Shown: positions 1,967 to 35,473, counted from the stretch's first letter. The stretch: DNA of 64,000 bases from an uncultured Myxococcales bacterium (GCA_964546845.1 CAZJMY010000792.1:83092-147091); one strand, 5' to 3'. Numbers and translations are program-made. Notes: generated from the sequence alone by a model not told the origin.

Positions 1967-1998
1967 CTACCGACTCCTCGCGCGTTGAGTGGCCATGC

Positions 1999-3678: not shown

Positions 3679-3699
3679 GATTCCTCCTTGGCCTTTTGA

Positions 3700-3719
3700 C
3701 TGTTGCATAACACTAAACA
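3700..3719 (-). promoter_or_regulatory. Operator-like 20-mer, copy 1 (plus-strand CTGTTGCATAACACTAAACA) upstream of the coiled-coil gene
   Basis: 19/20 identical to 4153-4172. It lies about 20 nt upstream of the ATG at 3678, in the 87-bp gap after the XRE gene. Confidence 0.6.
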
Positions 3720-3765
3720 AGGTCCCCGAGCCAAGCGCCGAAGGGCCCCCCCAGCTCGCATTTGT

Positions 3766-4137
3766 CTACGAGTCGTACCCGGACCGATCGCTCGACGAGT
3801 GACGCCGCTTGATCTCGGTGATCAGCTGTTCGAAATCTTCTGAGGTCAGCCGCAGTGTCATGGCGGTCCTCAAGAATTCAGGCACGTTCGGGACGAGGTT
3901 CATGAACTCGGCGATGTCGGGATCCGTGCTATCGGCTAGCCGAAAAAGCAGATCTGCATCCCCGCCAAAAAGGCGCGCCATCTTCTTTACGAGTTCGGGT
4001 TTCGGCGGTCGCTCCTTCCCCCGCTCGATCCGGCTCAAGTAGGCCGGCGAAATCCCGAGGCGTTCGGCAGCTACACGAAGACCGAGATCTTGCGCTTCCC
4101 GCATCTCCCGGATCGTCTCTCCGAATCCTTTCGACAT
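3766..4137 (-). CDS. XRE-family helix-turn-helix transcriptional regulator (123 aa) with C-terminal extension
   Basis: 'LGLRVAAERLGISPAYLSRIERGKERP' is a classic XRE/Cro HTH. Start moved to the ATG at 4137, with an AGGAG-type SD (CAGGAGCC) upstream. It is the first gene of the minus-strand trio. Confidence 0.85.
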   Translation of the reverse strand: MSKGFGETIREMREAQDLGLRVAAERLGISPAYLSRIERGKERPPKPELVKKMARLFGGDADLLFRLADSTDPDIAEFMNLVPNVPEFLRTAMTLRLTSEDFEQLITEIKRRHSSSDRSGYDS

Positions 4138-4152
4138 CGACCCTTGTGGCTC

Positions 4153-4172
4153 CTGTTGCACAACACTAAACA
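4153..4172 (-). promoter_or_regulatory. Operator-like 20-mer, copy 2 (plus-strand CTGTTGCACAACACTAAACA) upstream of the XRE gene
   Basis: 19/20 identical to 3700-3719. It occupies the same position relative to its downstream start codon (about 15-20 nt upstream). Confidence 0.6.
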
Positions 4173-4278
4173 CATGTTGGACGGTTGTCAAGCCCCGCCG
4201 TTGTGCGCCTGGTACGCAGCGGTGTAGCTTGGCATCGCTTGGCAGGTTCTACCTGCGGGTGAGTCTGGGAGCCGCTCC

Positions 4279-4482
4279 GTGCCAGATGACGAGATCCTGA
4301 CGCTGAAGGAGGTCGCGCATCTCCTGAAGGTCGCCGAGAAGACCGTCTACACCATGTCCCAGAACAAGGAACTGCCCGCTTTCAAGGTCCGCGGGCAGTG
4401 GCGGTTTCGCCGCGAGGACATTGATAGCTGGATCGACGAGCAGACGAAGAGAAAGGCCGCCGGGGGGACATCCGATGGGTAG
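4279..4482 (+). CDS. Excisionase-family / MerR-like HTH DNA-binding protein (67 aa)
   Basis: 'LTLKEVAHLLKVAEKTVYTMSQNKELPAFKVRGQWRFRREDIDSWI' matches the HTH_17 excisionase-type pattern. It is the first ORF of the long plus-strand operon. Confidence 0.8.
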   Translation: MPDDEILTLKEVAHLLKVAEKTVYTMSQNKELPAFKVRGQWRFRREDIDSWIDEQTKRKAAGGTSDG

Positions 4483-6571
4483 ACGGGCCGCGTCGAAGCA
4501 GCACAGCTCCGTGGACGATGATGTCGACACCGCGGACACAGGGGCTGCCGCGACCGACGACCAGGCCACGCGAGCTGGCGATGAAGTCGAGGTCGTCCAG
4601 GATGGCCGCCTGCTCGACTTCATCTCGGGCACGAGGGAGCTGAAGGACACGCCGAAGGAGCAAGTGCGCCAGCGCATCGCGCGCGCTCTCTTCCACGAGT
4701 ACGGGATCTCCATCGAAGACATGGAGGCCGACTTCTCGGTCAGCGTCGGCGGTCGCCGCCGTCGTGTGGACATCGCGATCTTCAGGCCCGGCCAGCCACA
4801 CGCTCAGGAGAACCTGCGCCGCGTCGTCGTCTGCCGACCCGAGCCGACGCAGAACAAGCGGGGCGCGGTCAAGATGCGCGACTACGATCAGGCTGCGAAG
4901 GACCTCGAGGAGATCAAGCCGTTCTTCGAGGAAGTGGATGGCTGCCAATACGGGCTTTGGACCAATGGCCTCGAGTTCTTCTTCCTGAAGAAGAAGGCGA
5001 CGAAGTTCCAGATCGATGCCGAACCGATCGGCGACTGGCCTCCAGGCGACGAGTCGATCGGCACGAGGGACGTGTTCTCATATGCCCGGGTGCGCCGCGC
5101 CGATCCTGAGATGCTTCGGACGGCGTTCCGCCGCTGCCACAACTTCATCCACGGCAACGAGGGCATGCCGAAGGACGCCGCTTTCTGGCAGTTCCTGTAC
5201 CTCATCTTCTGCAAGATGCACGACGAGCGAGCGGCGCGAGATCGGCGCAAGTTCTGGGCGGGCCCTCAGGAGCAGTTCACCGACGCGGGCCGCAAGGAGA
5301 TCCAGAAGCGGATTCTCCCTCTCTTCGAGGAGGTCAAGCAGGAGTACAAGGCCATCTTCCGGGAGAGCGACGAGATCACGCTCTCGCCCCGCGCGCTGGC
5401 CTTCATGGTTTCGGAGCTCGCGAAGTACGAATTCACGCGCATCGACGTCGACGCGAAAGGTGCCGCGTACCAGGAGATCGTCGGGACAAACCTCCGCGGC
5501 GACCGCGGCCAGTACTTCACTCCGCGCGGTGCAATCCGGCTGGTGGTGCAGATCCTCGACCCGAAAGAGCACGAGAAAATCCTCGACCCTGCGTGCGGCA
5601 CAGGTGGGTTCCTCGTCGCCACGCTCGCGCACATGATGGGCCGCTTCCGAGAGGCGGCGAAGATCCGCGCCGACGCGGAGACCTCCGAGGAGTTCGAGTC
5701 GCTGCACGCGCGCCTGCGGAAATTCGCGACCAACCAGCTGTTCGGTTGTGACTTCGATCCGTTCCTCATCCGGGCCAGCCAGATGAACATGGTGATGGCG
5801 GGCGACGGGAAGGGTCACCTTTACCACCTCAACTCGCTCGAGTTCCCGAACGGCCACCTCGTCGGCGTCAAAACAGCGGAGCGTCACATCAAGCTGGGCA
5901 CGATGGACGTCGTGATGACCAACCCGCCGTTCGGGTCGGAAATCCCCATCACGGACGACAACGTCTTAAAGGAGTACGACCTCGCGCACGTCTGGGAGAA
6001 GGCCGAGGACGGCACCTTCCGCATGACGCCCCGTCTTCAGGGCAGCGTCGCGCCCGAGGTGCTGTTCATCGAGCGCTGCCTCGACTGGCTCAAGCCCGGC
6101 GGACGCATGGGCATCGTCCTGCCCGATGGCATCCTCGGCAATCCCGCGGCCGAGTACATCCGCTACTGGATCCTCCGAAACGCGTGGGTGCTGGCCAGCG
6201 TAGACCTGCCCGTCGAGACGTTCATCGTCGAGGCCAACGTCAACATCCTCACGAGCCTCCTTTTCCTCAAGAAGAAGCCGCCAGAGGTGATCAACCGCGA
6301 GGGGCTTCGCGGCAAGCGCGACGACTACCCCGTCTTCATGGCCGTCGCCGAGAAGGTCGGCTTCGACCGGCGCGGCAACACGCTCTTCAAGCGCTCTCCC
6401 GAAGGTGAGGAGTTGACCAAAGACGTGGAAGAAGTAGAGACGATCACGGTGGGTGGTCGGAAGGTGGCCAGGACGCTCCGCCGCAAACAGAAGATCCTCG
6501 ACGACGACCTTCCGGTGATCGCCGACCGCTACCGCGCTTTTCGACGCGAGAACCCGGAGCCAGGGACGTGA
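4475..6571 (+). CDS. N6-adenine DNA methyltransferase (HsdM-like, gamma class) with HsdR_N-like N-terminal module, paralogue 1
   Basis: Motif I 'ILDPACGTGGFLV' and motif IV 'VVMTNPPFGSE' are present. The N-terminus 'EQVRQRIARALFHEYGI...RRRRVDIAIF' resembles the HsdR N-terminal fold. The start is ambiguous (ATG 4421 or ATG 4475); 4475 has a GGGGGGA SD and overlaps the upstream stop by 8 nt. Confidence 0.9.
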   Translation: MGRRAASKQHSSVDDDVDTADTGAAATDDQATRAGDEVEVVQDGRLLDFISGTRELKDTPKEQVRQRIARALFHEYGISIEDMEADFSVSVGGRRRRVDIAIFRPGQPHAQENLRRVVVCRPEPTQNKRGAVKMRDYDQAAKDLEEIKPFFEEVDGCQYGLWTNGLEFFFLKKKATKFQIDAEPIGDWPPGDESIGTRDVFSYARVRRADPEMLRTAFRRCHNFIHGNEGMPKDAAFWQFLYLIFCKMHDERAARDRRKFWAGPQEQFTDAGRKEIQKRILPLFEEVKQEYKAIFRESDEITLSPRALAFMVSELAKYEFTRIDVDAKGAAYQEIVGTNLRGDRGQYFTPRGAIRLVVQILDPKEHEKILDPACGTGGFLVATLAHMMGRFREAAKIRADAETSEEFESLHARLRKFATNQLFGCDFDPFLIRASQMNMVMAGDGKGHLYHLNSLEFPNGHLVGVKTAERHIKLGTMDVVMTNPPFGSEIPITDDNVLKEYDLAHVWEKAEDGTFRMTPRLQGSVAPEVLFIERCLDWLKPGGRMGIVLPDGILGNPAAEYIRYWILRNAWVLASVDLPVETFIVEANVNILTSLLFLKKKPPEVINREGLRGKRDDYPVFMAVAEKVGFDRRGNTLFKRSPEGEELTKDVEEVETITVGGRKVARTLRRKQKILDDDLPVIADRYRAFRRENPEPGT

Positions 6572-8586
6572 GCGACGAGCTCGACGAGCAGGCCGAAGGT
6601 GAAGCGGAAGAGGAGTCCGAGAGCGAGTCCGAAGCTCTCATCGACATCCTCACCGGGCAGGCGATCGCGCCGTCGGCGAAGAACCGATTGGTGCAGAAGG
6701 TCGCGCGTCAGCTCCTCGAGAGCTATGGCTTCGACCGCGCCGACATCAAAGTCGGGTACCGGCTTACGACGGCGGGCAAGCGTGGGAAGTCGGTGGACAT
6801 CGCGATCGTGCGCCACGGGATGGAGCCCTGTGACGAGAACATCGAGCGCGTCATTGTCTGCCAGCCGCAGAAGGCACGCGAGAAGCTTCGCAGCCCAGAG
6901 GAAGCCGCGCCCGACCTGCGCAAGCTGCACGAGAAGCTGGAGCTGTTCCCCAAGTGCCACCTCGGCATGTGGACCAACGGGCACGAGGAGTTTTTCGTTC
7001 GCGCGGAGGACAAGACGTTCGAGACGCGCTTCTCGAACATCGGTGCGTGGCCCGCCCCCGGCGAGCGCACCGACGACGTGCTCAAAGAGGGCGGCGCGAC
7101 GCAGGTCCCTGCTGATCCCGAAGATCTCGAAGCCGCGCTCCGACGCTGCCACCAATACCTGACCAAGAACCGCCTTCTCGGCGCGGATGCGTTCAAGCCA
7201 CTCGGCGCGCTGCTCCTCGCCAAGCTGTACGACGAGACGCTTCCACGCTCAGAGCGCAAGTTCTGGATCCGCGGCGACGAGCCGTTCACCGCGGCGGGAC
7301 AGGAGGCCATCCGCCAACGCGTAGCGGCGTGCTTCGAGGCGGGGCGGGCCTGGCAACCGAACGTCCTTCTCCACGGCTGGGACCTCGGCTATCTGAACGC
7401 TGCGCAGTTGGCGCGCGTGGCGACGGAGCTCGCTCGGTACTCGCTCGCCGACAGTCTGCCCCTGAGCCGGACGTTTGCGTTTCGTGCAGGCGCAGCCTCG
7501 ACGATGGATGGCAAAGAGGGCCGCTACCCGACGCCGATCAACGTCGCGCAGATGGCGGTCTCGATACTTGACCCTGGACCGGGCGATCGCGTCTTCGATG
7601 GCTCGGCCGGCACAGGGACGTTCCTCGCCATGGCAGCGACGCACGTCTTCGGAAAGCTTCTCACTGACCTCGGTGCGACGCTCGATACGGCGTCATCCGA
7701 CCAGCTACGCGAGGCACAGGTTCGCACTGCCGCGTGGGCGAAGGAGCACGTCTTTGGCTGCGACCTGTCGCAGTCCTTGGTCGTGACGTCGCGCCTGAAC
7801 ATGCTGCTCACGGCGGGGCAGGCGGGGAACGTCTTCCACGTCGATGCTCGCACCTTCCCGGACGGCGATCTCGAGGAACTGGACCGCGCGCGCACCGTCA
7901 TCCCGACCGAGAGCATGGATATCGTTCTCACGAACCCGTGGTTCAGCACCAAGGACACGATCAAGGAGGAGGCGATCCTCCGACGGTTCCGGCTCGGGCT
8001 CGAATGGAAGCGCACCGAAGAGGGTCACTTCGTGGAGAACGGCGCACTCAACACGGCCGGCGTGCCCCCCGAGGTTCTGTTCCTCGAACGCGCGTGGCGG
8101 TGGGCGAAGCCGGGTACAGGTCGCATTGCCATCCTGCTGCCCGATGGGCTCCTCGGAAATCCGAGCGACGAATACGTGCGCTGGTGGATACTCAAACATT
8201 GCGAGGTCCTCGCCGGTGTCGACCTCCCTATCGAGCCGTTTAAGGTCACCCTGAAGGACTACCGGCTGACGCCAGCTCTGCCCAGCCTTCTCGTCCTTCG
8301 ACGCCGCAGCCAAGAGGAGCTGCTTCACACGAGTCACCCCGACTACTGGGTATTCATGGCCGTGGTGAACCGCGCGGGCGTCGACGCCCGCGGCAACAAG
8401 CTCTTCCAACGAAAGCCGGACGGCGAGGAGCTGATTGTCGATGAGAAGGTAGTCGAGCGGGTTCGTGTCGGCGGGCAGGTGGTAGCGCGCCGGATCGTGC
8501 GCAGACAGTCGCGCATCGACGACGAGCTTCCGGTCGTGGCCGAGCACTACCGGCGGTTCGTCGATGGCGGTCGGAGGGGACCGTGA
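6568..8586 (+). CDS. N6-adenine DNA methyltransferase-like protein, paralogue 2, with non-canonical motif IV (NPWF)
   Basis: Motif I is 'VFDGSAGTGTFLA'. Motif IV is 'IVLTNPWFSTK' where NPPF/Y is expected. It has the same HsdR_N-like N-terminus as paralogue 1 ('NRLVQKVARQLLESYGF...GKSVDIAIV'). The GTG start overlaps the upstream TGA (GTGA). Confidence 0.85.
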   Translation: MSDELDEQAEGEAEEESESESEALIDILTGQAIAPSAKNRLVQKVARQLLESYGFDRADIKVGYRLTTAGKRGKSVDIAIVRHGMEPCDENIERVIVCQPQKAREKLRSPEEAAPDLRKLHEKLELFPKCHLGMWTNGHEEFFVRAEDKTFETRFSNIGAWPAPGERTDDVLKEGGATQVPADPEDLEAALRRCHQYLTKNRLLGADAFKPLGALLLAKLYDETLPRSERKFWIRGDEPFTAAGQEAIRQRVAACFEAGRAWQPNVLLHGWDLGYLNAAQLARVATELARYSLADSLPLSRTFAFRAGAASTMDGKEGRYPTPINVAQMAVSILDPGPGDRVFDGSAGTGTFLAMAATHVFGKLLTDLGATLDTASSDQLREAQVRTAAWAKEHVFGCDLSQSLVVTSRLNMLLTAGQAGNVFHVDARTFPDGDLEELDRARTVIPTESMDIVLTNPWFSTKDTIKEEAILRRFRLGLEWKRTEEGHFVENGALNTAGVPPEVLFLERAWRWAKPGTGRIAILLPDGLLGNPSDEYVRWWILKHCEVLAGVDLPIEPFKVTLKDYRLTPALPSLLVLRRRSQEELLHTSHPDYWVFMAVVNRAGVDARGNKLFQRKPDGEELIVDEKVVERVRVGGQVVARRIVRRQSRIDDELPVVAEHYRRFVDGGRRGP

Positions 8587-9980
8587 AAGAGAAGCTCGTC
8601 CCCAGCGCATTGCTCGAGAAGGAGGGGCGTCGCCTCGACTGCGGCCCCTACCTTTCAGGCGCCATAGAGGCGAAGCTCCTACTTCAAGGACTCTCCGTCG
8701 AGAAAGTGCAACTGAGTCAGGTCACGCTCGACTTGGTCAACGCGGGCCGCATCAAGCGCCTTTGGGTTACCGATGTCGAGAAGGGGGTGCCGTTCCTCAG
8801 CAGCACCGATATCCTCGACGCTGATCTTCGATTCCTCAGCCTCATTTCGAAGCACGCGGTGCGCGACAATCCGAAGCTGACGATCCGAACCGGTTGGACG
8901 CTTGTGACACGCGCCGGGACGATCGGCCGAATGGCCTTCGCGCGACCCGAGATGAATGAAATGGCCTGTAGCGAGGATGTCCTCCGCGTCATTCCCAATC
9001 CCAAGAAGGTGCGGCCGGGCTACCTATACGCCTTTCTTTGCAGCCGGTTCGGCCTTCCGCTCGTCATCGGCGGAACGTACGGTGCCATCATCCAGCACAT
9101 CGAGCCGCAGCACATTGCGGACCTTCCAGTCCCGATCGCCCCCGACCGTATTCAGGAGGCAGCGCACAAGCTCGTCGAGGAGGCCGCCGATCTCCGAACC
9201 AAGGCGTCGGCCGAGCTGCGTGCCGTCATCCGCGACATCGAGAGGACAGCCGACCTTCCGCCGGTGGACAGCCGCTATGACGGCGGCTCGCCTGATATCT
9301 CCATCGTAAAGGCCCAGACCCTCGGCTCGAGAATGGACGGCTTGTTCCACAGCGGCTTCCACCGTTCCGTGCTCGCTCCCCTGCTACGGCTGCCGGCAAA
9401 TCGGAGGGCGACGGTCGGCGATTTCGCGACCCGCGTCTTCGAGCCGCTGAGATTCAAGCGCATCAACGTCGATGACCCAAACCACGGCGTGCCCTTCTTC
9501 GGGACCTCCGACATCATGCGTTCCGAGCCGGTCGCTGGTCAGTACATCGTGAAACGTACACCTGGGCTCGATGATCTGGTCGTCAGCCCCAGCACCATCC
9601 TGATCCCGCGCTCAGGTCAGCTCGTAGGGATCATCGGGCACGCCGTTCTTCCTCACGGCGACATTGTCGGAGGTGCCGTGAGCGAAGACGCCATTCGCGT
9701 GGTGGCGCCCGACGACGCGACAGCTGGATACCTCTTTGCCTGCATCTCGTCGGAGTATGGGCGACGCCAGCTCAAGGCTCGCGCATTCGGATCGTCGATT
9801 CCACATCTCGACGTGCGGATGATCCGCTCGACAGTCGTCCCTCGCCTCTCTGACGACTCGATCAAGAGCCTCGGGCTGCGCGCGTTCCAGGTGGCAGTAG
9901 CGCGCTCAAATGCAGTCCGCAACGAGCGCGAAGCGAGAGCCGTCGTGGAGCGCTGGATCGAACGGAAGGGGGCGTCCTGA
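8583..9980 (+). CDS. Type I R-M-like specificity (S) subunit with two target-recognition halves
   Basis: There are two internally repeated halves. Each has a 'GVPFLSSTDI / GVPFFGTSDI' entry, a 'LVTRAGTIGRMA / LIPRSGQLVGII' core and a 'GYLYAFL / GYLFACI ... IQHIEPQHIADLPVP / IPHLDVRMIRSTVVP' tail, as in Methylase_S domains. The GTG start overlaps the upstream TGA. Confidence 0.8.
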   Translation: MKEKLVPSALLEKEGRRLDCGPYLSGAIEAKLLLQGLSVEKVQLSQVTLDLVNAGRIKRLWVTDVEKGVPFLSSTDILDADLRFLSLISKHAVRDNPKLTIRTGWTLVTRAGTIGRMAFARPEMNEMACSEDVLRVIPNPKKVRPGYLYAFLCSRFGLPLVIGGTYGAIIQHIEPQHIADLPVPIAPDRIQEAAHKLVEEAADLRTKASAELRAVIRDIERTADLPPVDSRYDGGSPDISIVKAQTLGSRMDGLFHSGFHRSVLAPLLRLPANRRATVGDFATRVFEPLRFKRINVDDPNHGVPFFGTSDIMRSEPVAGQYIVKRTPGLDDLVVSPSTILIPRSGQLVGIIGHAVLPHGDIVGGAVSEDAIRVVAPDDATAGYLFACISSEYGRRQLKARAFGSSIPHLDVRMIRSTVVPRLSDDSIKSLGLRAFQVAVARSNAVRNEREARAVVERWIERKGAS

Positions 9981-12900
9981 TGGCCCGAGTCATCGCCATC
10001 GGCCAGCCAGTGAACGACTCTGAGCGCGAGGCGATCGCGTTTCTTCGGGATCACCTGCCGAACAGCTACGTCGTCATCCACAACTTCGAGCTGAAGCAGG
10101 GCCACGAGCTCTACGAGATCGATATCGCGCTCCTCGCGCCGCACGCCGTCTTCGTTATCGACGTGAAGGGGACGCGCGGTCTGATCGACGTCTATGGGGC
10201 CAAGTGGTACCCGGAGGGCCGCGCGCCGTACCACTCGCCGCTCGCCATCCTCCGCAAACACGCCAAGGCGCTGAAGACGTTCATCTGCGATCAGCATCCT
10301 GCCGACACCGCGCTGCGCGGCGTGTATGTCGACGCCGCGGTGCTCATGACGGACCCCGGGGCTCACGTTCAAGACGCGGCCGGCCAGGACGGTCCGTCGG
10401 TCGCCTACCTCAAGAAGTGCGCCGCGTTCTTCCAGGACAAGTCACGTGTGCCGGGGACGTTCTCCTCGGACATCCGAGCCAAGCTCGGCGTCGTCGAGCA
10501 GGCGGTCGTCGGGCGTGCGAAGCCGAAGAGCGCGCCGCCCTGCTATGGGAACTGGCAGGTCGAGGAGAAGCTCGGTGGGACCGACCGATACACGGAGTAC
10601 CGCGCGAGGCACACCCTCCTCGGGGCGCGTCGTGGCGGCACCGCCCGGCTGCGCCTCTACCAGGTCGACGCCTACGTGCCGACAGAACGCCAGCGGCAGG
10701 TGAAGCTCATCAGCAACGCCTACCGCTCCCTGGCCGGCCTGCCGGGCCACCCCAACATTCTATCGGTCCGCGAGTTCTTCGACGATGAAGACGCGAAGAA
10801 CTGGGTCGCGCTCGTGACTGGGGACGTCGCCGGCCAGGCGCTGCGGCAGCACATCAAGAAGAGCAGTCTCGCGCTCACCTACGATCAGAAGCTCGCTGTC
10901 ATCCGTGATGTTCTCGCTGCACTCGATCACGCCCATCGAAACGAGCCCCAGGTCATCCACCGCAACATGACCCCGGACGCGGTGCTCATCAGCAACGCGG
11001 GGCGCGCCCTTCTCTGCGGCTTCGACTACGCGCGGGCTGGCAAGGACCGGACGAGCACTATCGCAGAGGACATCGTCGACGAGATCGATACGATCTACCA
11101 GTCGCCCGAATGCTACCGCGATCCATCGAAGGCGAGCGTCGCATCGGACCTCTACTCCGCTGGTCTCGTCTTCTACGAGCTGCTCGTTGGCGAGCCGCCC
11201 TGGTCGTCGGTCGACGACATGCTCGAGAAGGATGCCCTCTTCCCCGTCAAACCGTCCGAGGTCAAGCCCGAGCTGCCGGCCGGGTTGAACGAGTGGCTCC
11301 AGTGCCTCTGCGCCTTCGATGTCGAGAGCCGACCCAGCAGTGCCGCCGTGGCGCTCGCGCGATTCAACGACATCGTCGGCCCGGATCCACGAGAAGCAGC
11401 GAAGGCCAAGAAGGATGCGCTCCCCCCTTCTCCGCCGCGCCCGGAAATCGAATACGAGGTTCTTCAGCGCGGCACCGAGCTCGCTAACCGTTTCCGCGTC
11501 GAGGAGAAGCTCGGCTCGGGAGGCTTCGCCGTCGCCTACAAAGTGTTCGACTCCTACGCGGATACGGCGCGCGTCCTCAAGGTCATCGTAAAGGACCGGC
11601 GCTCGACGTTCCAGCGCATGAAACAGGAGTACCGGCTTCTGTCCCGTTTGGACGAGCCTCATCCGAACGTCGTTCACGTACTTTGGGCCGACAAGCTGCC
11701 AGACGAGACCCCCTACATGGTCTTCGAGTACGCGGCCGGGCTCGACGTGGGCGAGATGCTTAGCGCAGGCGCGCTTTCGCTGGAGGACGTGCGACGCATC
11801 GCCAACGACACGCTTGCTGGCCTCGAGCACCTGCACAGGAACGGTATCTTCCATCGCGACATCAAGCCGTCCAACCTCCTCTGGACCGACCAGGGTGTCC
11901 GAATTTTCGATTTCAATGTCGCCGTCCACGAGGACGACGGAGAAGCGCGCGCTGGCGGAACCCGCCGGTATATCCCGCCCGACGTGGAACTGGGCGAGAT
12001 ACTCGCCGCCGAGGACGAGATCGACCGCGACTTGTACGCGCTCGGAATCACGATCTACGAATGTGCGACCGGCAAGTACCCGTGGACGGAGATCACGCCG
12101 CCACCCAAGGTCGCCCCGACCGATCCGCGAACCCACGTCGCCGATCTCAGTCCGGAGTTCAGTCAGCTCATCGTCAAGGCGATCGCTCCTCGGAAAGCCG
12201 AGCGGTTCTCGTCGGCCGCCGAATTCCGCGCCGCGCTCGCGAGCGTGTCGAAGTTGCGTGTCTTGGCGCCGTCGCCTGCGGTGAACGTCGCGCCGAAGGC
12301 TGAAACGCCGCCGTCGCTTTCGGTCCTCCAACCTTCCAAGCCCAACTTCAATCCATTCGTCAGCCACCTGCTGACGATGTACAGCCAGAGCACGCACACG
12401 AATGCTGGCACTCGCAGCCTCGGCACTATTGGGCGCGAGACCTACGTGAAGACGCTGCTCGACGAGAAGCTGCGTCCCGCCGTTCTATCTGGCGAGTTTC
12501 GCCTCGTCATCGTCACTGGCAACGCCGGCGATGGGAAGACGACGTTCATCCAGCAGATCGAGCGCAAGATCGCCTCCGGGTTGAAGCAGCTCTCGAATGG
12601 GTCGGAGTTCGTCCTCAACGGCAGGCGGTTCCTCACGAACTACGACGGCAGTCAGGACGAAGATGATAAGGCCAACGACGACGTGCTGGAGGAGTTCCTG
12701 AAGCCATACGAGGGACGCGACGCCAGCAGCTGGCCCACCGACGAGACACGGATCATCGCCATCAATGAGGGGCGCCTCGTCGACTTTCTGACGGAGCGCG
12801 AAGAGCGGTTCACGCACTTGAAGCGGCTCGTCCTCGCTGGCCTCGGTGGTGCTCGAGCCTCGGACGGCGTCGTTACCGTGAACCTCAACCTGCGAGCCAT

Positions 12901-14119: not shown

Positions 14120-15783
14120 TGGGCATCAAGGGCCGAGACCAGGAGTTCAGCCTGAAGAAGCTCTCCTACATCGATTTCAAGCCCCTGAACATGGACAGGG
14201 TGCTCACGATGCTCTTCCCGCGGTTGCGCTTCGGCGGCTACGGCACGCGACGCCCGCCGAGGAAGAACGAGCTGACGGTCGGCGATTTCGCTCGCGAGTA
14301 CCTCAAAGATCCGAAGATGTTTGTCGGCTTCGCCGAGCATCAGGACGTCGTCGAACGGTGGATCGAGACCGATCTCATGGACATGGTGAACCGCGGTCGG
14401 CCAAATCAGGCCCTCGCGGCACCGCGCCCGCTGCACGGGAACACATACAAGTTCCGCAACGCTCGCCATGCACGGGATTACGGCGCGGCCGAGCACCTGT
14501 ACTGGATGCTCTACTATGCCCGCGACGGGCGTGGGCAGACCGCTCGCGATGCGCTCACTCGCTTCTTCTTCCCTGGCGTGGATCTCCACACGGACAAGTA
14601 CGACCCGTCAGCGTCGGTCGACGTCGAGACCCAGGCGCTCCTCCACTTCGACCGGCAGGTCACGGTGGACACGCGGGACTCGCAGGACCCCGATCGCTTC
14701 CCGCCCTTGTGCGTGGGCCAGGTGGATCTGCTAGCGGACGATACGCTGCGCCTGCTGGCTTATGAGCCCTACATCCCGCGCTCGGTCCTCGTCGAGTACC
14801 TGAAGACTCTCTTCGCGTTCCACCTCGGGCTGTACCACCTTCGACTGATCAAGCTCCTGCCCTCGCTCGTTCGTAGGCGCGGGGCAGATCCGATCTGCGA
14901 GCCCAAGAATTGCCCGGTTGCGCCGGGCGATCTTCAGGCTCACGGCGGCTGCCCGTACCGCGTCTACTTGCTCGTGGATCTTGGGAACGACCTCGACAGC
15001 CACATGGCCAGCCTGGCGAGACACAGCGCCGACGTCCATTACCGCCGCATCCCCAACTACATCGCAGCCCATTACCTCGTCCGCAAGCTTGACGAGTTCG
15101 CCGACTACTTGAGCAAGAAGATCGGCAAGCTCGCGGCGCCGCCAAGCGGCTTCTTTGGGATCGGAGACTTGCTCCGCCTCCTCGAACCACCGTTCGCGGG
15201 CGAGCGCGACGGCTACTTCAAAATGCGACTGGCCGGCCTTCTGGAGGACACCGCTGGCGAAACGCGAGAGGAAATCGATCCAGAGGTTCGGCGTGTCACC
15301 GAGATGGGGCTCAACGACCTCGACATGTTCATCGAGATCCTGATGGCGGTGCGGGGCTCCTATCACCGCAAGTACATCACCGAGTTCCTCGACTCAGTGT
15401 TCAAGCGGGGCGACGCCGGCGCCATGCACCAGTCAAGGGGGAGCGCGCGACGATTCTCGATGGGAAGTCTTCTGCTCGAGGTTCTTCTCCAGATCGCGGT
15501 TCTCCGCCCCACGGCGACGAGCTTCTACACGCGCGAGCTTCGCATCGATGAGCTGCTGACGTTCCTGCAGCAGCGCTACGGGCTCTACATCGACCGCCTT
15601 CCACCTGGAGACGGTTTCGGCACGGCAAGCATCAACGACCTTGCCGCGCTCCGCGGAAACGCGGAGCGCTTCAAGGCGAGGCTGCAGGAGATTGGCTTCT
15701 TCCGCGACCTCTCCGACGCGTACATCACGCAGACGATCACGCCCCGCTATGCCATCGCGGCCCCGACTGGAGCTGCGCGATGA
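14119..15783 (+). CDS. Hypothetical protein (554 aa), no recognisable motif; middle gene of the putative restriction arm
   Basis: A long ORF translationally coupled at both ends (TGATG at 14117-14121, ATGA at 15780-15783). I could not recognise any catalytic motif. Confidence 0.7.
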   Translation: MGIKGRDQEFSLKKLSYIDFKPLNMDRVLTMLFPRLRFGGYGTRRPPRKNELTVGDFAREYLKDPKMFVGFAEHQDVVERWIETDLMDMVNRGRPNQALAAPRPLHGNTYKFRNARHARDYGAAEHLYWMLYYARDGRGQTARDALTRFFFPGVDLHTDKYDPSASVDVETQALLHFDRQVTVDTRDSQDPDRFPPLCVGQVDLLADDTLRLLAYEPYIPRSVLVEYLKTLFAFHLGLYHLRLIKLLPSLVRRRGADPICEPKNCPVAPGDLQAHGGCPYRVYLLVDLGNDLDSHMASLARHSADVHYRRIPNYIAAHYLVRKLDEFADYLSKKIGKLAAPPSGFFGIGDLLRLLEPPFAGERDGYFKMRLAGLLEDTAGETREEIDPEVRRVTEMGLNDLDMFIEILMAVRGSYHRKYITEFLDSVFKRGDAGAMHQSRGSARRFSMGSLLLEVLLQIAVLRPTATSFYTRELRIDELLTFLQQRYGLYIDRLPPGDGFGTASINDLAALRGNAERFKARLQEIGFFRDLSDAYITQTITPRYAIAAPTGAAR

Positions 15784-18700
15784 GCACCGGCTTCCGTGCG
15801 CTACCCGGCGCGGATGTCACCCGCGCGGTAGAGGAGCTCCTCTTGCCGCGCCTCGCGGGCGCGCTTCGGGAGAAGGCGGCCGGTCACTGCATGCGCGTGA
15901 CCGACTTGGACCGGGACCTGATGGTCGCTCTCGCCAAGGGGTTGCGAAAGGAGGCCCCAGGCGCATCCGTATACGTTCTGGCTGACGGAGCGGCAGGAGG
16001 CGACGACCTCTGCGTTTCGTCGACAAAGCTGGTCGAGCTCCGCAACCCCCAGGCAGATGGCTCGCTGCGCTCGCCGCTCTGCGTCTTCTTGCCCGCGAAC
16101 GTGCGCACCAGCGCGGAGGATTCCTTCGGGCGAGCGACGTTTGAGGAGTTCCCGGTGGGCGACTCATACCAAGCGCTCTGCCGTCGTCTCCTCGAGCGTG
16201 TACCGGCGACGCTTCAGGGCTATGTCCGGGACGTGCTCCAGTACCTCGCCAACCAGGCATGGCGCTGGGCAAACGCCATCGGCCAAGTCCGCTACCTTCT
16301 CTGCGCTCTTGCCAACGGCAACGATGGCGAGGCCTTCGGCGGTGCGCTCTACGAGCTGGGGCTCGTGCCAGACTTCAAGCTGTTCGACGATCCCACGACC
16401 TCGTACGGACGCATCCGCAAGAACCTCGAGTGCGTCCGGATGCTCACCGACTCCGACCAGTCGATCCGATCGCGGGTGCTCGAGCTTGGCCTGATCAACA
16501 AGGGCCTACGGAGGCGTCTTGCCGAGTACCTCGTCGAGGCAGGCGTCGAAGATCCATCCGCGTGGACACGTGAGGTGGTCCTCAACAAGACCAACTGGGA
16601 CCTTTCGTTCGACAAGTGGGAGTTCGCGTCGGAGATCGCTCCCGACAAGATTTCATTCCTGCGCGTTGAGACCGATCTCCCCGTCGTCGCCGAGAACGAG
16701 AAGAGCGAGCGCCTCATCGACCTCGTCGGGCAGCAAGTCCTCGCCCCGAAGGAGCGGCGGCAGTTCAATGTGACTGTCGAGGTCAAGCCGCATCCCGGCC
16801 AGGTCCAGGGCCTCGAGCACTTCACCGTTCAGATCATGTCTCGGGACTCTGGCCCGGTGGGCGTTGCCCGCAAGGTCAAGGTCTGGAAGGCACCGCGGGC
16901 AACCTGCACGGTTTCATTCACCAAGCTCAACAAGATCGAGTTCGAAGAGGGATGGCACTTCGTCCGCGTCCTCCCCTGGACCGCAGAAGGTGATCCAATA
17001 CCGATCGAAGAGCCGACCGAGCAGGCCGCGAAGCGCTCCAACGAGAGCGAGCCCTTCTACGTCTTGCCCGACGCTGACCTCGAAGAGGAACCACCGCAGC
17101 GAGCCATCCCTAAAGCAGACAGCGTGGAGCATGCGCGGATCGATCGCCAGTTCACGGCCGTCCTTCAGCGCCGCGACGCACTCGCGGTCCGCCCCGAGAG
17201 CATCGGCTGGTCGCAGCGAACCACGCAGGGAAGGCTGGCCGCACAGGAAACCATCGAGGCGAAGTTCGGAAAGGAAGGCGCGTTCCAGATCGCCGTCGCC
17301 CGATGGATGAAGCACATCGAGCAGCGGATCCTCTCCAACCCGGAACGACCGGTGAGCTGGCGGATGCAGATCCACCTTGGTCAACCGGAGTTCCCAACGG
17401 GCGACATCGCAGAATGGCCTGCGTCTACGGCGGTGCGCAGCTTCCTCGACGCACGTGCGACGTACTTCGCTCGCGTGCTGCAGGGCACGAAAGAGCTCGT
17501 TTCTCAGGGGCTCGACTTCCTCTCGGCGGCGCCCGAGATCGTCGCTTACGCAGGCGCCTACGTTGACCTCGTCAAAGACTTCTCAGCCAAGGTCGAACGC
17601 GAGGCCGGTGCAGACCAGCTCAAGGCCATCATCGCACTGCGTACCGCGCTTGCCGTCGACTCGGTCCGGCTCGTCGTAGAGGATTACCGCGGGCACGTTC
17701 GGGAAGCCGCTCTTCTCGGTCCAACACACCCGCTCCGCGCCCTCCAGCAACTTGGATGGGCGCAGCTCGGGGCAGCGTGGGTGCGCACGACTGCAAAGGG
17801 TCCGGAGGAGCACGTCAGCCCCGCACGCGACGCGCTTCTCCGAGGCATCTCGTCGGCGAATTTCCCGCCGATGCTTCCGACCAGCGACGGCCGCGTTTTC
17901 CTAGCGGTCGACAACATCCATCCGTTTTGGGTGCTCTATGCACCTGCAACCGAGGAAGATCCGCGAGGGCTCCTGGGCGACATCTGTGCCGCACTCGGGC
18001 TGCCAGAGCCGTCAATTGGCGGCGCCGTCATCACAGGCGACGTTCTGGCCTCGCGAGTCGAGCGCTACCTGGTGCAGCACCCGTATGTGCGTACCCTGAC
18101 GGTCAACGCCTTCAACCCCGGACGCGCCACGGTGCTCGCGGGCGCGCTGACGTCGCTGCAGCGCCAGGAGGCATTCAAAGACCTCCGATACGACCTGCGC
18201 CTGTTCGTACCTGACCCGGACGCACCGGGCGTTGGCGAGGCCATCACGTCGCTACTCGCAGGCGAGGGGACAGCCGCTGGCGAGGCCTTCTCGATCCCGA
18301 GTCGCAGTCACGTCTTCCCGAAGCTCAACGTCGCCGTCCGATCCACGAAGGACTTCAGGGCCGACCCGATGCGCTACAGGGCGCACCTCAGTTTCCTCTT
18401 CGAGGTGTTCCCGCCTGAGGAAGTCGCTGCCGGACGCCCGTTCCGCCCGGAGCGAACGGTGCCTCTTCATGGCTTGGTCCAGGACTTCGCGGTGCGCTTC
18501 CGTGACGACGACACAGGAACGGGCTGGGAGCGGCAGCCGCGGCACGGGGCGCCCCTGGCCATCGAGGCAGGCGAGGACACCTCTGCGCTGCTCGGCGCGC
18601 TCCCGACGCTCATCTCGGCGGCCACGGCAACCGTGGCGAGGGCAACTCCTGACTTCGCGTCACGACCAATCATTCGACTCGAGCTGGACGCCGATGAACG

Positions 18701-21254
18701 CGCTCTCATCAGTGAGGTTCACGATGCAAGCGATTGGGTGTTCACGGTCGATCGCAACATGGGCATCGAGTTCTTCGATCACGGTGGCAAGAGGGACCGT
18801 CCCGACTACCTGATCGACTACACGCCGGCGACGGTTCCAGAGCATGGGCACCGGCTCGTCATCAGTTCGCGCTCCCTCTCCGAGCTGGAAGCGATCCTGC
18901 GCCCCGTGCTGAAGCAATACAGCCTGGATGCTGAAGGCCGACATGCGGTCGTCATCCTGGAGCAGCTGAGATCGCTTTCGGGGCGCTTGGCGTTGAAGTT
19001 GATCTCGTCGCCGACAGCGCGCGCCGAGGCGCTCGGGATGGCGCTCGCTCGGTTGTTCCTCAACGTCCAGGGAGCCCTGCGAAACCAGATCATCGTCCCG
19101 CTCGACGCACACCTGGATTTGTTCCACGCGGCGAAGAAGCACGCTGAGGCGATTGGCGACGAAGTCACCCTGCGCAGAACGGATCTCGCGCTCTTCGATC
19201 TCGACCTCGCGCGACGTACGATCACCTGCAACCTGGTCGAGGTGAAGTGCTACGCGCGGGACCTTGGGCTGAGCGGTTACAGCCAGGTGAAGGAGGGCAT
19301 CACCGAGCAGCTCAACCAGAGCGAGCGAATTCTGCAGCAGCACTTCGACCCGCACAGGACTACTCCGGACAGGCCGGACCGGCTCCTGAAGACGCGAGAG
19401 CTGGCGACGCTCCTCGACTTCTATCTGGAGCGCAGCATTCGATACGGGCTCATGATCGAGACGGCCGCCGAGGAGGCGCGCACCTTCCTCGACGTGCTCG
19501 AGCAGGGCTACACCCTCCGCTTCACGCGCAGCGGCCTCGTGTTCGACTTCGACAAGCCCGGCACAGAGCCTCCGGAGCGCGAGGTGGGCATCGAGTTCCA
19601 CCGGATTGGCAGTGACCTTATCCGTGCGCTGGTCGAGCAGGCGGCGCCGAAGGCGCCACCATCCCCATCCACCGAGGGCGGCGGCGAAGGCGGTGCGGGG
19701 CCAACTCCGCCAGCGGGCGCACCCCCGAGCGCTCCGCCGATCCCACGTCTTGGAGCAGCCGCCTTCCTCGTTGAGGAAAGGAAGCGCGACACCACGGTTG
19801 ACCACGGACACGACGAGGAGGCCAGCTCACCCGAGGACGGTGTGGCAGCGAAGCCGCCCACGCCGGCGTCGGCGACACTCCCACCGGCCCAAGCTTCTCC
19901 AACACCCAGCAGGCCTGAACAATCGACGTCGCCTCCGCAGCCGGCGTCTTCGCGGACCAGCCCGAAGCAGCGCGGAGGCGAGGCAGCTCCCGCTGCAGCG
20001 AAGCCCGAAACGAAGAAGGGCAACGGGGCTCACGCGGAACCGGCGTACGACATCGTCCTGGGTGTGGCCCAGCCGTCGCCGCAGTTCGGCCTGCTAGGCG
20101 AAGCTGCTGGCCGCAAGGTCGCGCTGGACTTGAACCAGACGCACACCATCAGCCTGTTCGGCGTCCAGGGGGGAGGTAAGAGCTACACGCTGGGCAGTAT
20201 CATCGAGATGGCGTGCATGCCCATCGCAGGCGTGAACGTGCTGCCTCGGCCGCTCGCTGCGGTCATCTTCCACTACAGCTCGACGCTCGACTACAAACCC
20301 GAGTTCACCTCGATGGTGGCGCCGAACACTGACGACGCGCAGATCCGCCTGCTGCACGACCGGTTCGGGGCGCAGCCGCAGGGGCTCAAGGACGTTGTGA
20401 TCCTCGCGCCGGCCGCCAAGGTCGCCGAGCGCTCGGCCGAGTATCCGGACATGAAGGTCCTGCCCATCGCCTTCAAGTCGTCAGAGCTGAAGGCCGCACA
20501 CTGGAAGTTCCTCATGGGCGCTGTCGGAAGCCAGAGCATGTACATACGGCAGGTCGGCCTGATCATGAAGAAGCTCCGGGACGAGCTGACTCTCGCGGGG
20601 CTCCGGAAAGGCATCGAGGACTCGGCGCTGTCGGACCATCTGAAGGAACTCGCGCTGCTACGTCTTCGATTCGCCGAGGAATACGTCGACGACCAGCGCG
20701 ACCTCACCAGCGTCCTGCGGCCAGGGCGCCTCGTCATTGTCGACCTCCGCGATGAGCTTGTGGAGAAGGACGAGGCCCTCGGCCTGTTCGTCGTCCTCCT
20801 GCAGATGTTCGCCGAGACGACCTACCAGGGGCGCCAGTTCAACAAGCTCGTGGTCTTCGACGAGGCCCACAAGTACATAGACAGCCCCGATCTCGTTGCC
20901 GGGCTCGTCGAGGTCGTTCGGGAGATGCGCCACAAGGGCACGAGCATCCTCGTCGCGTCTCAGGATCCTCCCTCGGTACCGGCGTCGCTGATCGAGCTTT
21001 CGAGCCAGATCATCCTTCACAAGTTCAATTCACCGAACTGGCTGAAGCACATCCAGAAGGCAAACGCCGCGCTCGATGGGCTGACACCCTCGAAGCTGGC
21101 GGCGCTCGGGCCCGGCGAAGCCTACGTCTGGAGCAGCAAGTCGACCGACGAGGCTTTCACGCGCGACGCGATCAAGGTGCGCTGCCGCCCACGAGTAACC
21201 CAACACGGAGGCGCTACGAAGACGGCTGTCCGATCTGAAGGAAAGCAGGAATGA
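15780..21254 (+). CDS. Giant protein (1824 aa): large N-terminal region, central D...EVK (PD-(D/E)xK-like) motif, Pro/Ala/Ser-rich linker, C-terminal HerA/FtsK-type (DUF87-like) P-loop ATPase
   Basis: Walker A 'LFGVQGGGKSYTLG' is encoded at about 20160-20190. Walker B 'KLVVFDEAHKYI' is at about 20850-20880, followed by 'TSILVASQDPPSVP'. A low-complexity linker spans about 19640-20040. 'RTDLALFDLD...NLVEVKCY' is encoded around 19170-19250. Confidence 0.85.
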   Translation: MSTGFRALPGADVTRAVEELLLPRLAGALREKAAGHCMRVTDLDRDLMVALAKGLRKEAPGASVYVLADGAAGGDDLCVSSTKLVELRNPQADGSLRSPLCVFLPANVRTSAEDSFGRATFEEFPVGDSYQALCRRLLERVPATLQGYVRDVLQYLANQAWRWANAIGQVRYLLCALANGNDGEAFGGALYELGLVPDFKLFDDPTTSYGRIRKNLECVRMLTDSDQSIRSRVLELGLINKGLRRRLAEYLVEAGVEDPSAWTREVVLNKTNWDLSFDKWEFASEIAPDKISFLRVETDLPVVAENEKSERLIDLVGQQVLAPKERRQFNVTVEVKPHPGQVQGLEHFTVQIMSRDSGPVGVARKVKVWKAPRATCTVSFTKLNKIEFEEGWHFVRVLPWTAEGDPIPIEEPTEQAAKRSNESEPFYVLPDADLEEEPPQRAIPKADSVEHARIDRQFTAVLQRRDALAVRPESIGWSQRTTQGRLAAQETIEAKFGKEGAFQIAVARWMKHIEQRILSNPERPVSWRMQIHLGQPEFPTGDIAEWPASTAVRSFLDARATYFARVLQGTKELVSQGLDFLSAAPEIVAYAGAYVDLVKDFSAKVEREAGADQLKAIIALRTALAVDSVRLVVEDYRGHVREAALLGPTHPLRALQQLGWAQLGAAWVRTTAKGPEEHVSPARDALLRGISSANFPPMLPTSDGRVFLAVDNIHPFWVLYAPATEEDPRGLLGDICAALGLPEPSIGGAVITGDVLASRVERYLVQHPYVRTLTVNAFNPGRATVLAGALTSLQRQEAFKDLRYDLRLFVPDPDAPGVGEAITSLLAGEGTAAGEAFSIPSRSHVFPKLNVAVRSTKDFRADPMRYRAHLSFLFEVFPPEEVAAGRPFRPERTVPLHGLVQDFAVRFRDDDTGTGWERQPRHGAPLAIEAGEDTSALLGALPTLISAATATVARATPDFASRPIIRLELDADERALISEVHDASDWVFTVDRNMGIEFFDHGGKRDRPDYLIDYTPATVPEHGHRLVISSRSLSELEAILRPVLKQYSLDAEGRHAVVILEQLRSLSGRLALKLISSPTARAEALGMALARLFLNVQGALRNQIIVPLDAHLDLFHAAKKHAEAIGDEVTLRRTDLALFDLDLARRTITCNLVEVKCYARDLGLSGYSQVKEGITEQLNQSERILQQHFDPHRTTPDRPDRLLKTRELATLLDFYLERSIRYGLMIETAAEEARTFLDVLEQGYTLRFTRSGLVFDFDKPGTEPPEREVGIEFHRIGSDLIRALVEQAAPKAPPSPSTEGGGEGGAGPTPPAGAPPSAPPIPRLGAAAFLVEERKRDTTVDHGHDEEASSPEDGVAAKPPTPASATLPPAQASPTPSRPEQSTSPPQPASSRTSPKQRGGEAAPAAAKPETKKGNGAHAEPAYDIVLGVAQPSPQFGLLGEAAGRKVALDLNQTHTISLFGVQGGGKSYTLGSIIEMACMPIAGVNVLPRPLAAVIFHYSSTLDYKPEFTSMVAPNTDDAQIRLLHDRFGAQPQGLKDVVILAPAAKVAERSAEYPDMKVLPIAFKSSELKAAHWKFLMGAVGSQSMYIRQVGLIMKKLRDELTLAGLRKGIEDSALSDHLKELALLRLRFAEEYVDDQRDLTSVLRPGRLVIVDLRDELVEKDEALGLFVVLLQMFAETTYQGRQFNKLVVFDEAHKYIDSPDLVAGLVEVVREMRHKGTSILVASQDPPSVPASLIELSSQIILHKFNSPNWLKHIQKANAALDGLTPSKLAALGPGEAYVWSSKSTDEAFTRDAIKVRCRPRVTQHGGATKTAVRSEGKQE

Positions 21255-21409
21255 CGCCCGCGCTGACGGCGTAGTGAATTCGTAGTGAGGGATTCGTGCT
21301 CTGGGGTGGTCTCGCGGGATCCTTGTCATCGATTTCGACTTGCCATCGCGGCCCATCTCGCGTACTTACGAAACAAGGCACCACGACGGATAACACTTCC
21401 AAAGGCCTG

Positions 21410-22681: not shown

Positions 22682-23124
22682 CGATCCCCCCGTGGGCCGT
22701 GCTCGCCATCCACGATCCGGCGCGCGATGTCGGCTTCCGTTTCGCCTGCGGAGCCGTCGGCCTTAGCGGCGGACGGGAGGTCGGCCATGAGCTGCTCGAG
22801 CTCCGCCCGTTTCACGCGCTCACCTCGCAGACCGTAGGCTCGGAGCTTGCCCGCGCGGATCCATCTGGTGATCGTTTTGGCGCTGTACCCGGCCAGCTTT
22901 GCGGCGCTCTCGCGGGACAGATATTCCGGCTGCTCCGTGGAAGGAGAGTTGGCTGGAGGAGGCGCCTTGGAGATCCACTCACGGAGCTTCTCTTCGAGTA
23001 TCGTCCGCAGCCGATCGTCCAACCACGATGCCATGCATCTCTCGACGATTGCGAACGGATTCTGACCGTCGGGAACCAGCCGCAGGCGGGCCGGTTGCGA
23101 GGGGTTGTGGTCGCGACCCTTCAC
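22678..23124 (-). CDS. Excisionase-type HTH DNA-binding protein (putative Xis/regulator of the island)
   Basis: 'LSRESAAKLAGYSAKTITRWIRAGKLRAYGLRGERVKRAELEQLM' is an HTH_17-like motif. The stop overlaps the integrase start (ATGA). The true start is uncertain. Confidence 0.65.
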   Translation of the reverse strand: MKGRDHNPSQPARLRLVPDGQNPFAIVERCMASWLDDRLRTILEEKLREWISKAPPPANSPSTEQPEYLSRESAAKLAGYSAKTITRWIRAGKLRAYGLRGERVKRAELEQLMADLPSAAKADGSAGETEADIARRIVDGEHGPRGDR

Positions 23125-24236: not shown

Positions 24237-24334
24237 CTGGCTGCCAGGGATGCGGCGGAGGCGTAGTTGGCGGAGATGGCGCGCGATCCCGTTGCCGTTC
24301 TGGACTTCAACGACCGGGGAGCCATCGTCGTCCC

Positions 24335-30654: not shown

Positions 30655-30655
30655 T

Positions 30656-34637: not shown

Positions 34638-34644
34638 TTGATCC

Positions 34645-35187: not shown

Positions 35188-35358
35188 CGCCGGCTATCCC
35201 TTCCGCCGCCCTTCGACCCGCCACGTACCGCCGGCGTCCTGGGCACATGAGAGTGAGGTGCTCAGGAACCGGGGGATGACGTCAAGCTGCGTGCGCGTGA
35301 TGACCTGGTGGGCGGGCGACATCGTGGTGGTCGCGTCGTTGGTCATGGGCGGCTGAGG

Positions 35359-35454: not shown

Positions 35455-35473
35455 TTTGTATACTATTAGCTAG

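Follow-up and report, generated by a model that had tools for sequence, protein, structure and literature searches.

The 64,000-nucleotide stretch of DNA that we analysed (hereafter the window), from an uncultured Myxococcales bacterium (GCA_964546845.1, CAZJMY010000792.1:83092-147091), carries between 4279 and 21254 a seven-gene operon that, judged by the matches of its proteins, is an intact copy of the methylation-associated defence system (MADS), an already named system and not a new one. The genes run in the order mad1, mad2, a second mad2 paralogue, mad5, mad6, mad7 and mad8 (Table 1); we refer to the two mad2 products as MAD2a and MAD2b. A gene for an XRE-type helix-turn-helix (HTH) protein is transcribed in the opposite direction directly upstream. 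All seven plus-strand open reading frames (ORFs) that a first-pass annotation, made by reading the sequence, had delineated within this interval were recovered. Their third-position G+C content is 0.77-0.86 throughout, in a sequence of about 64% G+C overall, and therefore marks the seven ORFs as genuine coding frames.

The genes are tightly interlocked. A start/stop overlap had been claimed at every junction, and all six can be read directly from the sequence. At the mad1/mad2 junction, ATGGGTAG occupies 4475-4482, and the mad1 stop codon at 4480-4482 is overlapped by an ORF opening at ATG 4475. This ATG, which follows a G-rich ribosome-binding stretch, lies in the same frame as the longer ORF that begins at TTG 4421; it is probably the start of MAD2a. 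The motif GTGA joins MAD2a to MAD2b (6568-6571) and MAD2b to mad5 (8583-8586), TGATG joins mad5 to mad6 (9978-9982) and mad6 to mad7 (14117-14121), and ATGA joins mad7 to mad8 (15780-15783). The annotation of the orthologous operon in Escherichia coli EC11 likewise shows overlapping junctions, so this arrangement is conserved rather than a product of chance. A scan of 3600-21600 for promoters and terminators returned sites no more numerous than in shuffled sequence, a weak result that is uninformative for this organism.

Curated protein models assign each gene to the same system. The NCBIfam equivalogs matched above their curated cut-offs (in brackets) are MADS1 at 91.2 bits (80), MADS2 at 1007.5 bits (720) for MAD2a, MADS5 at 474 bits (400), MADS6 at 762 bits (460), MADS7 at 619 bits (410) and MADS8 at 226 bits (175). 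For MAD2b, MADS2 is the sole NCBIfam MADS match, and its 699.5 bits fall slightly below the 720-bit cut-off. In PADLOC, the best specific matches read, in gene order, mad1, mad2, mad2, mad5, mad6, mad7 and mad8. The profile searches proposed as a check of the first-pass annotation thus confirmed its list of Pfam domains and at the same time gave every gene to MADS. Its description of the locus as a candidate non-canonical system was not borne out, since the best curated match of every gene is a MADS model; its aside that novelty should be judged against MADS, among other families, was correct. This gene set indeed already has a name: the NCBI pipeline annotates the E. coli EC11 locus (NZ_CP027255.1) as mads1-mads2-mads2-mads5-mads6-mads7-mads8. 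The EC11 proteins are one-to-one orthologues of those in the window, with identities, in gene order, of 71, 63, 59, 38, 53, 61 and 53%.

The work of Maestri et al. on MADS reportedly also appeared in Cell Host Microbe in 2024. These authors found the system in Pseudomonas aeruginosa SMC4386 and, in their MacSyFinder model, made MAD6, MAD7 and MAD8 mandatory (Maestri et al., 10.1101/2023.03.30.534895). All three are present in the window by both NCBIfam and PADLOC, and the accessory genes mad1, mad2 and mad5 share their operon and strand with overlapping junctions. For mad3 (an AAA/ABC ATPase) and mad4 (DUF4276), the MADS3 and MADS4 models gave no match in the operon or in the flanks that we scanned; in locus L070, from Streptomyces, the same models score 572 and 235 bits. 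Both genes are classed as accessory and as ‘not reliably detected in all systems’ (Maestri et al., 10.1101/2023.03.30.534895), so their absence leaves the membership of the locus in MADS standing.

The first four genes encode what would be the modification module. The product of mad1 was correctly recognized from the outset as an excisionase-type HTH protein (Pfam HTH_17 and TIGR01764 matches); in P. aeruginosa, mad1 is not needed for defence (Maestri et al., 10.1101/2023.03.30.534895). Both MAD2 proteins had been described as N6-adenine methyltransferases with an HsdR_N-like N-terminus, and the N6_Mtase domain is found in both, whereas the HSDR_N_2 match of the second stays below its cut-off (22.3 versus 25 bits). 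Full-length identity between the two is 36%. MAD2a has the canonical motifs I (LDPACGTGGFL) and IV (TNPPFGS), conserved in 51 orthologues. In MAD2b, motif I reads DxSxGTGTFL and motif IV reads NPWF(S/T), both conserved in 45 orthologues including that of E. coli, and the protein retains the GxG loop, the acidic residue after strand 2 and the N-P-x-F core. These motif changes are under purifying selection, and MAD2b is therefore functional in some sense.

MAD5 is a type I-like specificity (S) subunit. The two target-recognition halves that had been claimed for it are matched as two separate stretches, by the PADLOC mad5 model and by many type I S models. Between loci MAD5 is 31-60% identical, compared with 53-88% for the other proteins of the same loci, a divergence that fits target-recognition swapping, of which it is the usual sign. 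Type I methyltransferases are M2S1 assemblies, a stoichiometry that makes it plausible that MAD2b pairs with MAD2a, probably on the two halves of MAD5, to form an asymmetric M-M'-S complex. The stated lack of a type I or type III R subunit held as well: the operon and the larger flanking ORFs that we scanned contain no HsdR-like gene.

The last three genes encode the putative restriction arm. MAD6 had been read as a NERD, pseudokinase, kinase and P-loop protein, and Pfam confirms NERD, Pkinase (twice) and the P-loop. Invariant in 63 orthologues are E46, D48, D61 and K63 of the NERD domain, K534, D627, K629, N632 and D644 of the second kinase, and the Walker A (GNAGDGKT) and Walker B-like (IAINEG, with N929) motifs of the C-terminal core. 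The second kinase is thus predicted, from its residues, to be an active Ser/Thr kinase; in the first, HRN replaces HRD (Asn in 61 of the 63). Amino acids 780-1379 match the PADLOC models for SspF (E = 1e-23) and DndF (E = 2e-9), and the N-terminal half, comprising NERD, pseudokinase and kinase, matches PglW (PADLOC, 9.5e-77), a resemblance that had already been suspected. An Asn in Walker B is a hallmark of DndF, and DndF variants with NERD, an inactive and an active kinase domain exist (Rakesh, Aravind and Krishnan, PMC10853773).

The 554-amino-acid product of mad7, by contrast, had been put down as a protein without recognizable motifs. It is MAD7 by its 619-bit match and remotely SspG/DndG-like: PADLOC gives 1.8e-118 for mad7 and 4.8e-8 for SspG, and the supplement of the MADS preprint lists an HHpred probability of 99.5% between Mad7 and DndG (PDB 7EXX; 10.1101/2023.03.30.534895). 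Pfam finds no match, even at E≤1, in MAD7 or in amino acids 1-1400 of MAD8. At the C-terminus of MAD8 lies the HerA/FtsK-type ATPase that had been placed there, with Walker A at amino acid 1461 and a Walker B DEAH at about 1694. The MADS8 match spans amino acids 35-238 and that of PADLOC mad8 spans the C-terminal ATPase; further PADLOC matches are to DndH (1.4e-6, in the middle region), to SspH (0.015) and, at the C-terminus, to HerA models, and the best PDB match is TdpA (8wet, 5e-5). Twenty-five orthologues share without exception E1083, D1135, E1154-V-K1156, Walker A G1461-S1468 and Walker B D1694-E1695. The resulting E...D...ExK pattern fits the active restriction-endonuclease domain of DndH (PMC10853773).

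Set against known systems, the last three genes agree with DndFGH, DptFGH and SspFGH in gene order and sizes, and remote homology links these proteins to the MAD6 C-terminus (SspF/DndF), MAD7 (SspG) and MAD8 (DndH, together with HerA). The Asn in the Walker B motif of MAD6 and, in MAD8, a nuclease motif followed by a HerA/FtsK ATPase are DndF and DndH features, respectively. Hence the first-pass annotation's picture of a DptFGH-like machine keyed to methylation is supported as a functional reading and fails as to novelty: we rejected a new methylation-keyed DptFGH hybrid because such a description fits MADS itself, and the likenesses to DndG, HerA, DndF, SspF and PglW are already recorded in the supplement of the MADS preprint (10.1101/2023.03.30.534895). 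The self mark also differs, being phosphorothioate in the DndFGH and SspFGH systems and N6-methyladenine (m6A), placed by a type I-like M/S pair, in MADS. Neither dndABCDE nor sspABCD genes occur in the operon, nor do they turn up in the other ORFs of the window that we scanned. By these comparisons, MAD6-8 are homologous to the DptFGH proteins without being members of their families.

We likewise rejected the idea that the locus is a relative of type 2 of bacteriophage exclusion (BREX). MAD6 and PglW have in common the N-terminal half of PglW only, and both systems are linked to methylation. By contrast, MAD6 scores 245 bits on the NCBIfam PglW model, whose cut-off is 990, and its C-terminal half is DndF/SspF-like. 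The operon contains no PglZ, BrxC or other BREX gene, and PglX models touch MAD2a marginally (E from 1e-6 to 2e-3, far below cut-off). Type I restriction-modification systems resemble the locus in their gamma-class N6-adenine methyltransferase, two-half S subunit and ATP-driven restriction arm and, for the experimentally tested MADS, in the bipartite motif. They differ in having HsdR, a superfamily 2 helicase-nuclease that is found neither in the operon nor in the scanned flanks; the methyltransferases of the window, for their part, add an HSDR_N_2-like N-terminal module and occur as two distinct M paralogues.

The nearest comparisons are with other MADS loci. The EC11 locus shares with the window all seven genes and their order, the overlapping junctions, the NPWF motif in the second mads2, a homologous divergent HTH gene upstream and a nearby integrase (at the upstream edge of the EC11 region); it differs in host lineage, in sequence and in its S subunit, so that the target motif presumably differs as well. 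P. aeruginosa SMC4386 has mad1, mad2 and mad5-mad8 in the same order, and the window would share with it m6A-based self/non-self discrimination and lies, as it does, in a defence hotspot beside mobility genes. Where P. aeruginosa has mad3 (an OLD/ABC-type ATPase) and mad4 (DUF4276/Toprim), the window has the second mad2 paralogue. In an eight-gene MADS on a Piscinibacter plasmid, MAD6 and MAD8 are about as large as in the window.

Relatives of MAD7 define 74 loci in species-representative genomes from many phyla, among them Acidobacteriota, Proteobacteria, Spirochaetia, Chloroflexota, Actinomycetota and Cyanobacteria. Because this sample was seeded from the MAD7 of the window, it is biased towards its relatives; with this bias, the layout of the window is found in about 40 of the 74. 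The closest relatives of the window are Acidobacteriota and Thermoanaerobaculia metagenome-assembled genomes (MAGs), at 80-89% identity; for MAD7 taken singly, the nearest matches, again in such MAGs, are at 85-88%. It had been asked whether the last three genes are co-conserved with M/S genes, and the latter accompany MAD6-8 in essentially every locus with enough upstream sequence. When the 3' part of mad8 was searched as DNA against complete E. coli genomes, 10 genomes matched, and most of the matches listed are annotated ‘mads8’. The MAD7 proteins of a Collinsella MAG (L046) and of E. coli EC11 are nearly identical on the tree, which suggests either that the gene moved horizontally very recently or that the contig was mis-binned.

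The part of the operon that varies between loci is the slot of about 2 kb between mad2 and mad5. MAD2b is its commonest occupant in this sample. Canonical MAD3 and MAD4 fill it in the Streptomyces locus L070 and in the annotation of the Piscinibacter plasmid; elsewhere it holds SoFic, a Clp-like protease, a 573-amino-acid protein resembling the PNTD region of proteins associated with prokaryotic Argonautes, or nothing, and in some loci an accessory gene and MAD2b stand there together (Table 1). On these comparisons the gap is a hotspot for unrelated accessory genes. In a rough neighbour-joining tree of MAD7, states other than MAD2b are nested in or scattered around the MAD2b clade, which therefore indicates repeated swaps of the slot. 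Variable completeness, ‘multiple subtypes’ and duplicated hits were already reported by the discoverers of MADS (10.1101/2023.03.30.534895).

The divergent XRE gene matches Pfam HTH_31 and HTH_3 and, in PADLOC, HTH_VI/capH-like. At least 11 other loci from distant hosts have a homologue (50-72% identity) directly ahead of mad1 and on the strand opposite to it; one of them is that of E. coli EC11, whose annotation calls it merely a ‘helix-turn-helix domain-containing protein’. Because of this conserved position we assign the gene to the MADS locus, probably as a regulator that stands outside the named mad genes. The capH-like match raised the alternative that it belongs to the adjacent module resembling a cyclic oligonucleotide-based antiphage signalling system (CBASS), which we ruled out, given that the gene is kept beside mad1 where that neighbour is absent. 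Within the 87-bp gap between the XRE gene and mad1, GCTTGGCA occurs twice, 10 bp apart (4227-4244), and may be an operator.

What such an operon does is best understood from its relatives. In P. aeruginosa, m6A is placed on both strands of the bipartite motif TCAGNNNNTCC in a mad2-dependent manner, methylated phage and plasmid escape restriction, and the restriction of plasmid transformation depends on both the motif and its methylation (Maestri et al., 10.1101/2023.03.30.534895). Defence there requires mad2-4 and mad6-8; deletion of mad5 is lethal unless mad2 or mad3 is deleted as well; and at a multiplicity of infection of 10, cultures carrying MADS grow equally with and without phage (10.1101/2023.03.30.534895). 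DndFGH, in turn, forms a 2:2:1 complex that nicks DNA in a translocation-coupled manner and whose ATPase is repressed by the self mark (PMC11662687).

These precedents shape our preferred reading, to which we assign a probability of roughly 0.85: the locus is a complete seven-gene MADS with its divergent XRE gene in a mobile defence island, in which self DNA would be marked by MAD2 and MAD5 and restriction would be carried out by a DndFGH-type MAD6/7/8. By extension from the P. aeruginosa homologue, MAD2, directed by MAD5, would place m6A in a bipartite motif, on both of its strands, and unmethylated phage or plasmid DNA bearing that motif would be restricted without killing the cell. The C-terminal DndF-like core of MAD6 would assemble with MAD7 and MAD8 into a complex of the DndFGH type that moves along DNA, nicking or cutting it, and that is restrained at methylated sites. 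The MAD2/MAD5 module may, in the manner of type I enzymes, read the sites for both methylation and restriction, and the NERD and kinase domains of MAD6 could act as co-effectors or regulators.

Several observations weigh against this reading. The main caveat is that mad3 and mad4, which are essential in the tested P. aeruginosa system, are absent here; without them, restriction might follow another chemistry, or the seven-gene form might be less effective. The NPWF motif of MAD2b departs from the (D/N/S)PP(Y/F/W) consensus, which renders the role of this protein uncertain, and since MAD2b and MAD3/4 are both missing in some loci (for example L055, L029 and L010), MAD2b is not universally required. 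The homology of MAD7 and MAD8 to DndG and DndH is remote. The NCBIfam (TIGRFAM) models for DptF, DptG and DptH, which the first-pass annotation had put forward as a check, gave no match at E≤0.01; in sequence searches of the PDB, neither the single MAD7 sequence nor a MAD7 profile of 24 members had a match, and MAD8 (single and profile) matched HerA-type ATPases only, and not DndH. Finally, a 2026 review still counts the restriction mechanism of MADS as unsolved, and our literature search found no experiment on a seven-gene MADS or on this locus.

The operon could also be split at the mad5/mad6 junction into two unrelated neighbours, an orphan type I-like M/S module (mad1, both mad2 genes and mad5) and a stand-alone, DndFGH-type mad6-8. 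DndFGH is often decoupled from modification genes and may be a nucleotide-triggered, stand-alone system (Rakesh, Aravind and Krishnan, PMC10853773), and the MacSyFinder model for MADS insists on MAD6/7/8 only; yet the overlaps bind mad5 to mad6 as they bind every other pair, the M/S genes travel with MAD6-8 across the sampled loci, and the P. aeruginosa genetics (the escape of methylated plasmid, the requirement for mad2, and the lethality of mad5 loss unless mad2 or mad3 is removed) couple the two halves. We regard such a division as highly improbable, and would give scarcely any credence to its corollary that mad6-8 senses infection by other cues, such as nucleotides or phage proteins, instead of a methyl mark. 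A different output is imaginable for the undivided operon, in which the MAD6 kinase would phosphorylate host or phage proteins and its NERD domain would degrade DNA indiscriminately, leading to arrest or death of the cell. The invariance of the Ser/Thr kinase residues and of the intact NERD motif in the 63 MAD6 orthologues would suit abortive infection or signalling of this kind, and the N-terminal modules of DndF and PglW have been proposed as suicidal back-up effectors in published domain analyses (including PMC10853773). Such an outcome is very unlikely, however, in view of the equal growth of P. aeruginosa MADS cultures with or without phage at a multiplicity of infection of 10 and of the dependence of plasmid restriction on motif and methylation; the conserved PD-(D/E)xK motif and HerA motor of MAD8 likewise point to direct action on DNA.

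A further alternative keeps the system and its target and changes how the mark is read. Here the seven-gene form would be mechanistically distinct, with MAD2b a dead or altered methyltransferase that reads methylation and licenses MAD6-8, in place of the OLD-like MAD3 and MAD4. MAD2b sits in the position of mad3 and mad4 and is translationally coupled on both sides, its NPWF motif IV and altered motif I are strongly conserved, and its score falls under the MAD2 cut-off. On the other hand, the variety of occupants of the same slot in other loci, including none, gives it the look of an insertion hotspot, and the motif elements that MAD2b keeps would allow it to be a plain, active second methyltransferase subunit. 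We hold this alternative to be possible, if doubtful. The stronger proposition that seven-gene MADS is a separate subtype, in which a non-catalytic or altered MAD2b, paired with MAD2a on one S subunit, would read methylation and license MAD6/7/8 so that the OLD-like MAD3/MAD4 nuclease pair is not needed, strikes us as unlikely.

The operon is part of an island of defence and mobility genes. To its left are the transposase that marks the edge of the window and the CBASS-type cyclase, whose 573-amino-acid neighbour may be an uncharacterised effector; to its right, the integrase and its excisionase-like genes are followed by a series of defence-related genes (Table 1), with unannotated ORFs of 187-526 amino acids between the PD-T4-7 homologue and the DitA-like gene. 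Ordinary metabolic genes start at approximately 48 kb, and from there on the G+C content, about 0.60-0.65 until then, is higher, at about 0.70, which suggests that the island ends near that point. Because the rve transposase and the integrase with its excisionase-like genes flank it, the MADS operon appears to be carried by an integrative element. The whole 64-kb window yielded neither tRNA genes nor Rfam families, and no attachment-site tRNA or attachment repeat was identified.

Table 1. Features of the window, domains of MAD6 and MAD8, and genes of other MADS loci discussed in the text (aa, amino acids; L numbers denote comparison loci).
Feature	Position	Strand	Size or remark
rve-family transposase	42-998		left edge
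CBASS-type oligonucleotide cyclase	1070-1966	-	PADLOC Cyclase 2e-63; Pfam SMODS
Protein adjoining cyclase	within 1070-3720	-	573 aa; weak, sub-threshold DUF2130 match only
Divergent XRE-type HTH gene	3766-4191	-	141 aa
mad1	4279-4482	+	67 aa
mad2 (MAD2a)	4475-6571	+	longest ORF from TTG 4421
Second mad2 paralogue (MAD2b)	6568-8586	+	672 aa
mad5	8583-9980	+	465 aa
mad6	9980-14119	+	1379 aa
mad7	14119-15783	+	554 aa
mad8	15780-21254	+	1824 aa
Tyrosine integrase	21410-22681	-	directly 3' of mad8
Two HTH_17 (excisionase-like) genes	within 21410-24715		with integrase
PD-T4-7 defence-candidate homologue	24716-25636	-	8e-37
DitA-like/DUF5677 protein	29077-30861	-	2e-16
Pnkp (kinase-phosphatase-ligase) and Hen1 RNA-repair pair, adjoining divergent RtcR sigma-54 activator	30656-37093		
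Schlafen/AlbA_2-domain protein	41089-41814		
AbiEii-like nucleotidyltransferase toxin	42638-43240		
MAD6, NERD	aa 13-109		
MAD6, pseudokinase	aa ~195-470		
MAD6, Ser/Thr kinase	aa 506-745		
MAD6, DndF/SspF-type P-loop core	aa ~820-1379		
MAD8, DndH-like middle region	aa 862-1077		
MAD8, putative PD-(D/E)xK motif	aa ~1083-1158		
MAD8, HerA/FtsK ATPase	aa 1440-1817		
XRE homologue, L076 (E. coli EC11)	1560-1910		
XRE homologues, L010, L013, L001, L029, L038, L050, L055			
Accessory gene in mad2-mad5 gap, L029	2947-4068		
Accessory gene in mad2-mad5 gap, L038	2995-4116		
Accessory gene in mad2-mad5 gap, L010	2703-4424		
Accessory gene in mad2-mad5 gap, L013	2673-4382		
Accessory gene in mad2-mad5 gap, L007	2630-3613		
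Accessory gene in mad2-mad5 gap, L008	744-2405		
Accessory gene in mad2-mad5 gap, L069	1207-2325		

For comparative work, the locus contributes a further intact MADS operon, whose lineage is related to Acidobacteriota MAGs. With the system itself already described, the residual interest is in the seven-gene form and its NPWF paralogue. In our biased sample, the seven-gene layout with MAD2b is far commoner than the eight-gene layout on which experiments have been done, and studies of the mechanism of MADS should consider this form, the NPWF paralogue and the XRE gene upstream. If the seven-gene form were indeed a separate subtype, this, together with the XRE regulator and the accessory hotspot, would establish how MADS operates in its most widespread layout.

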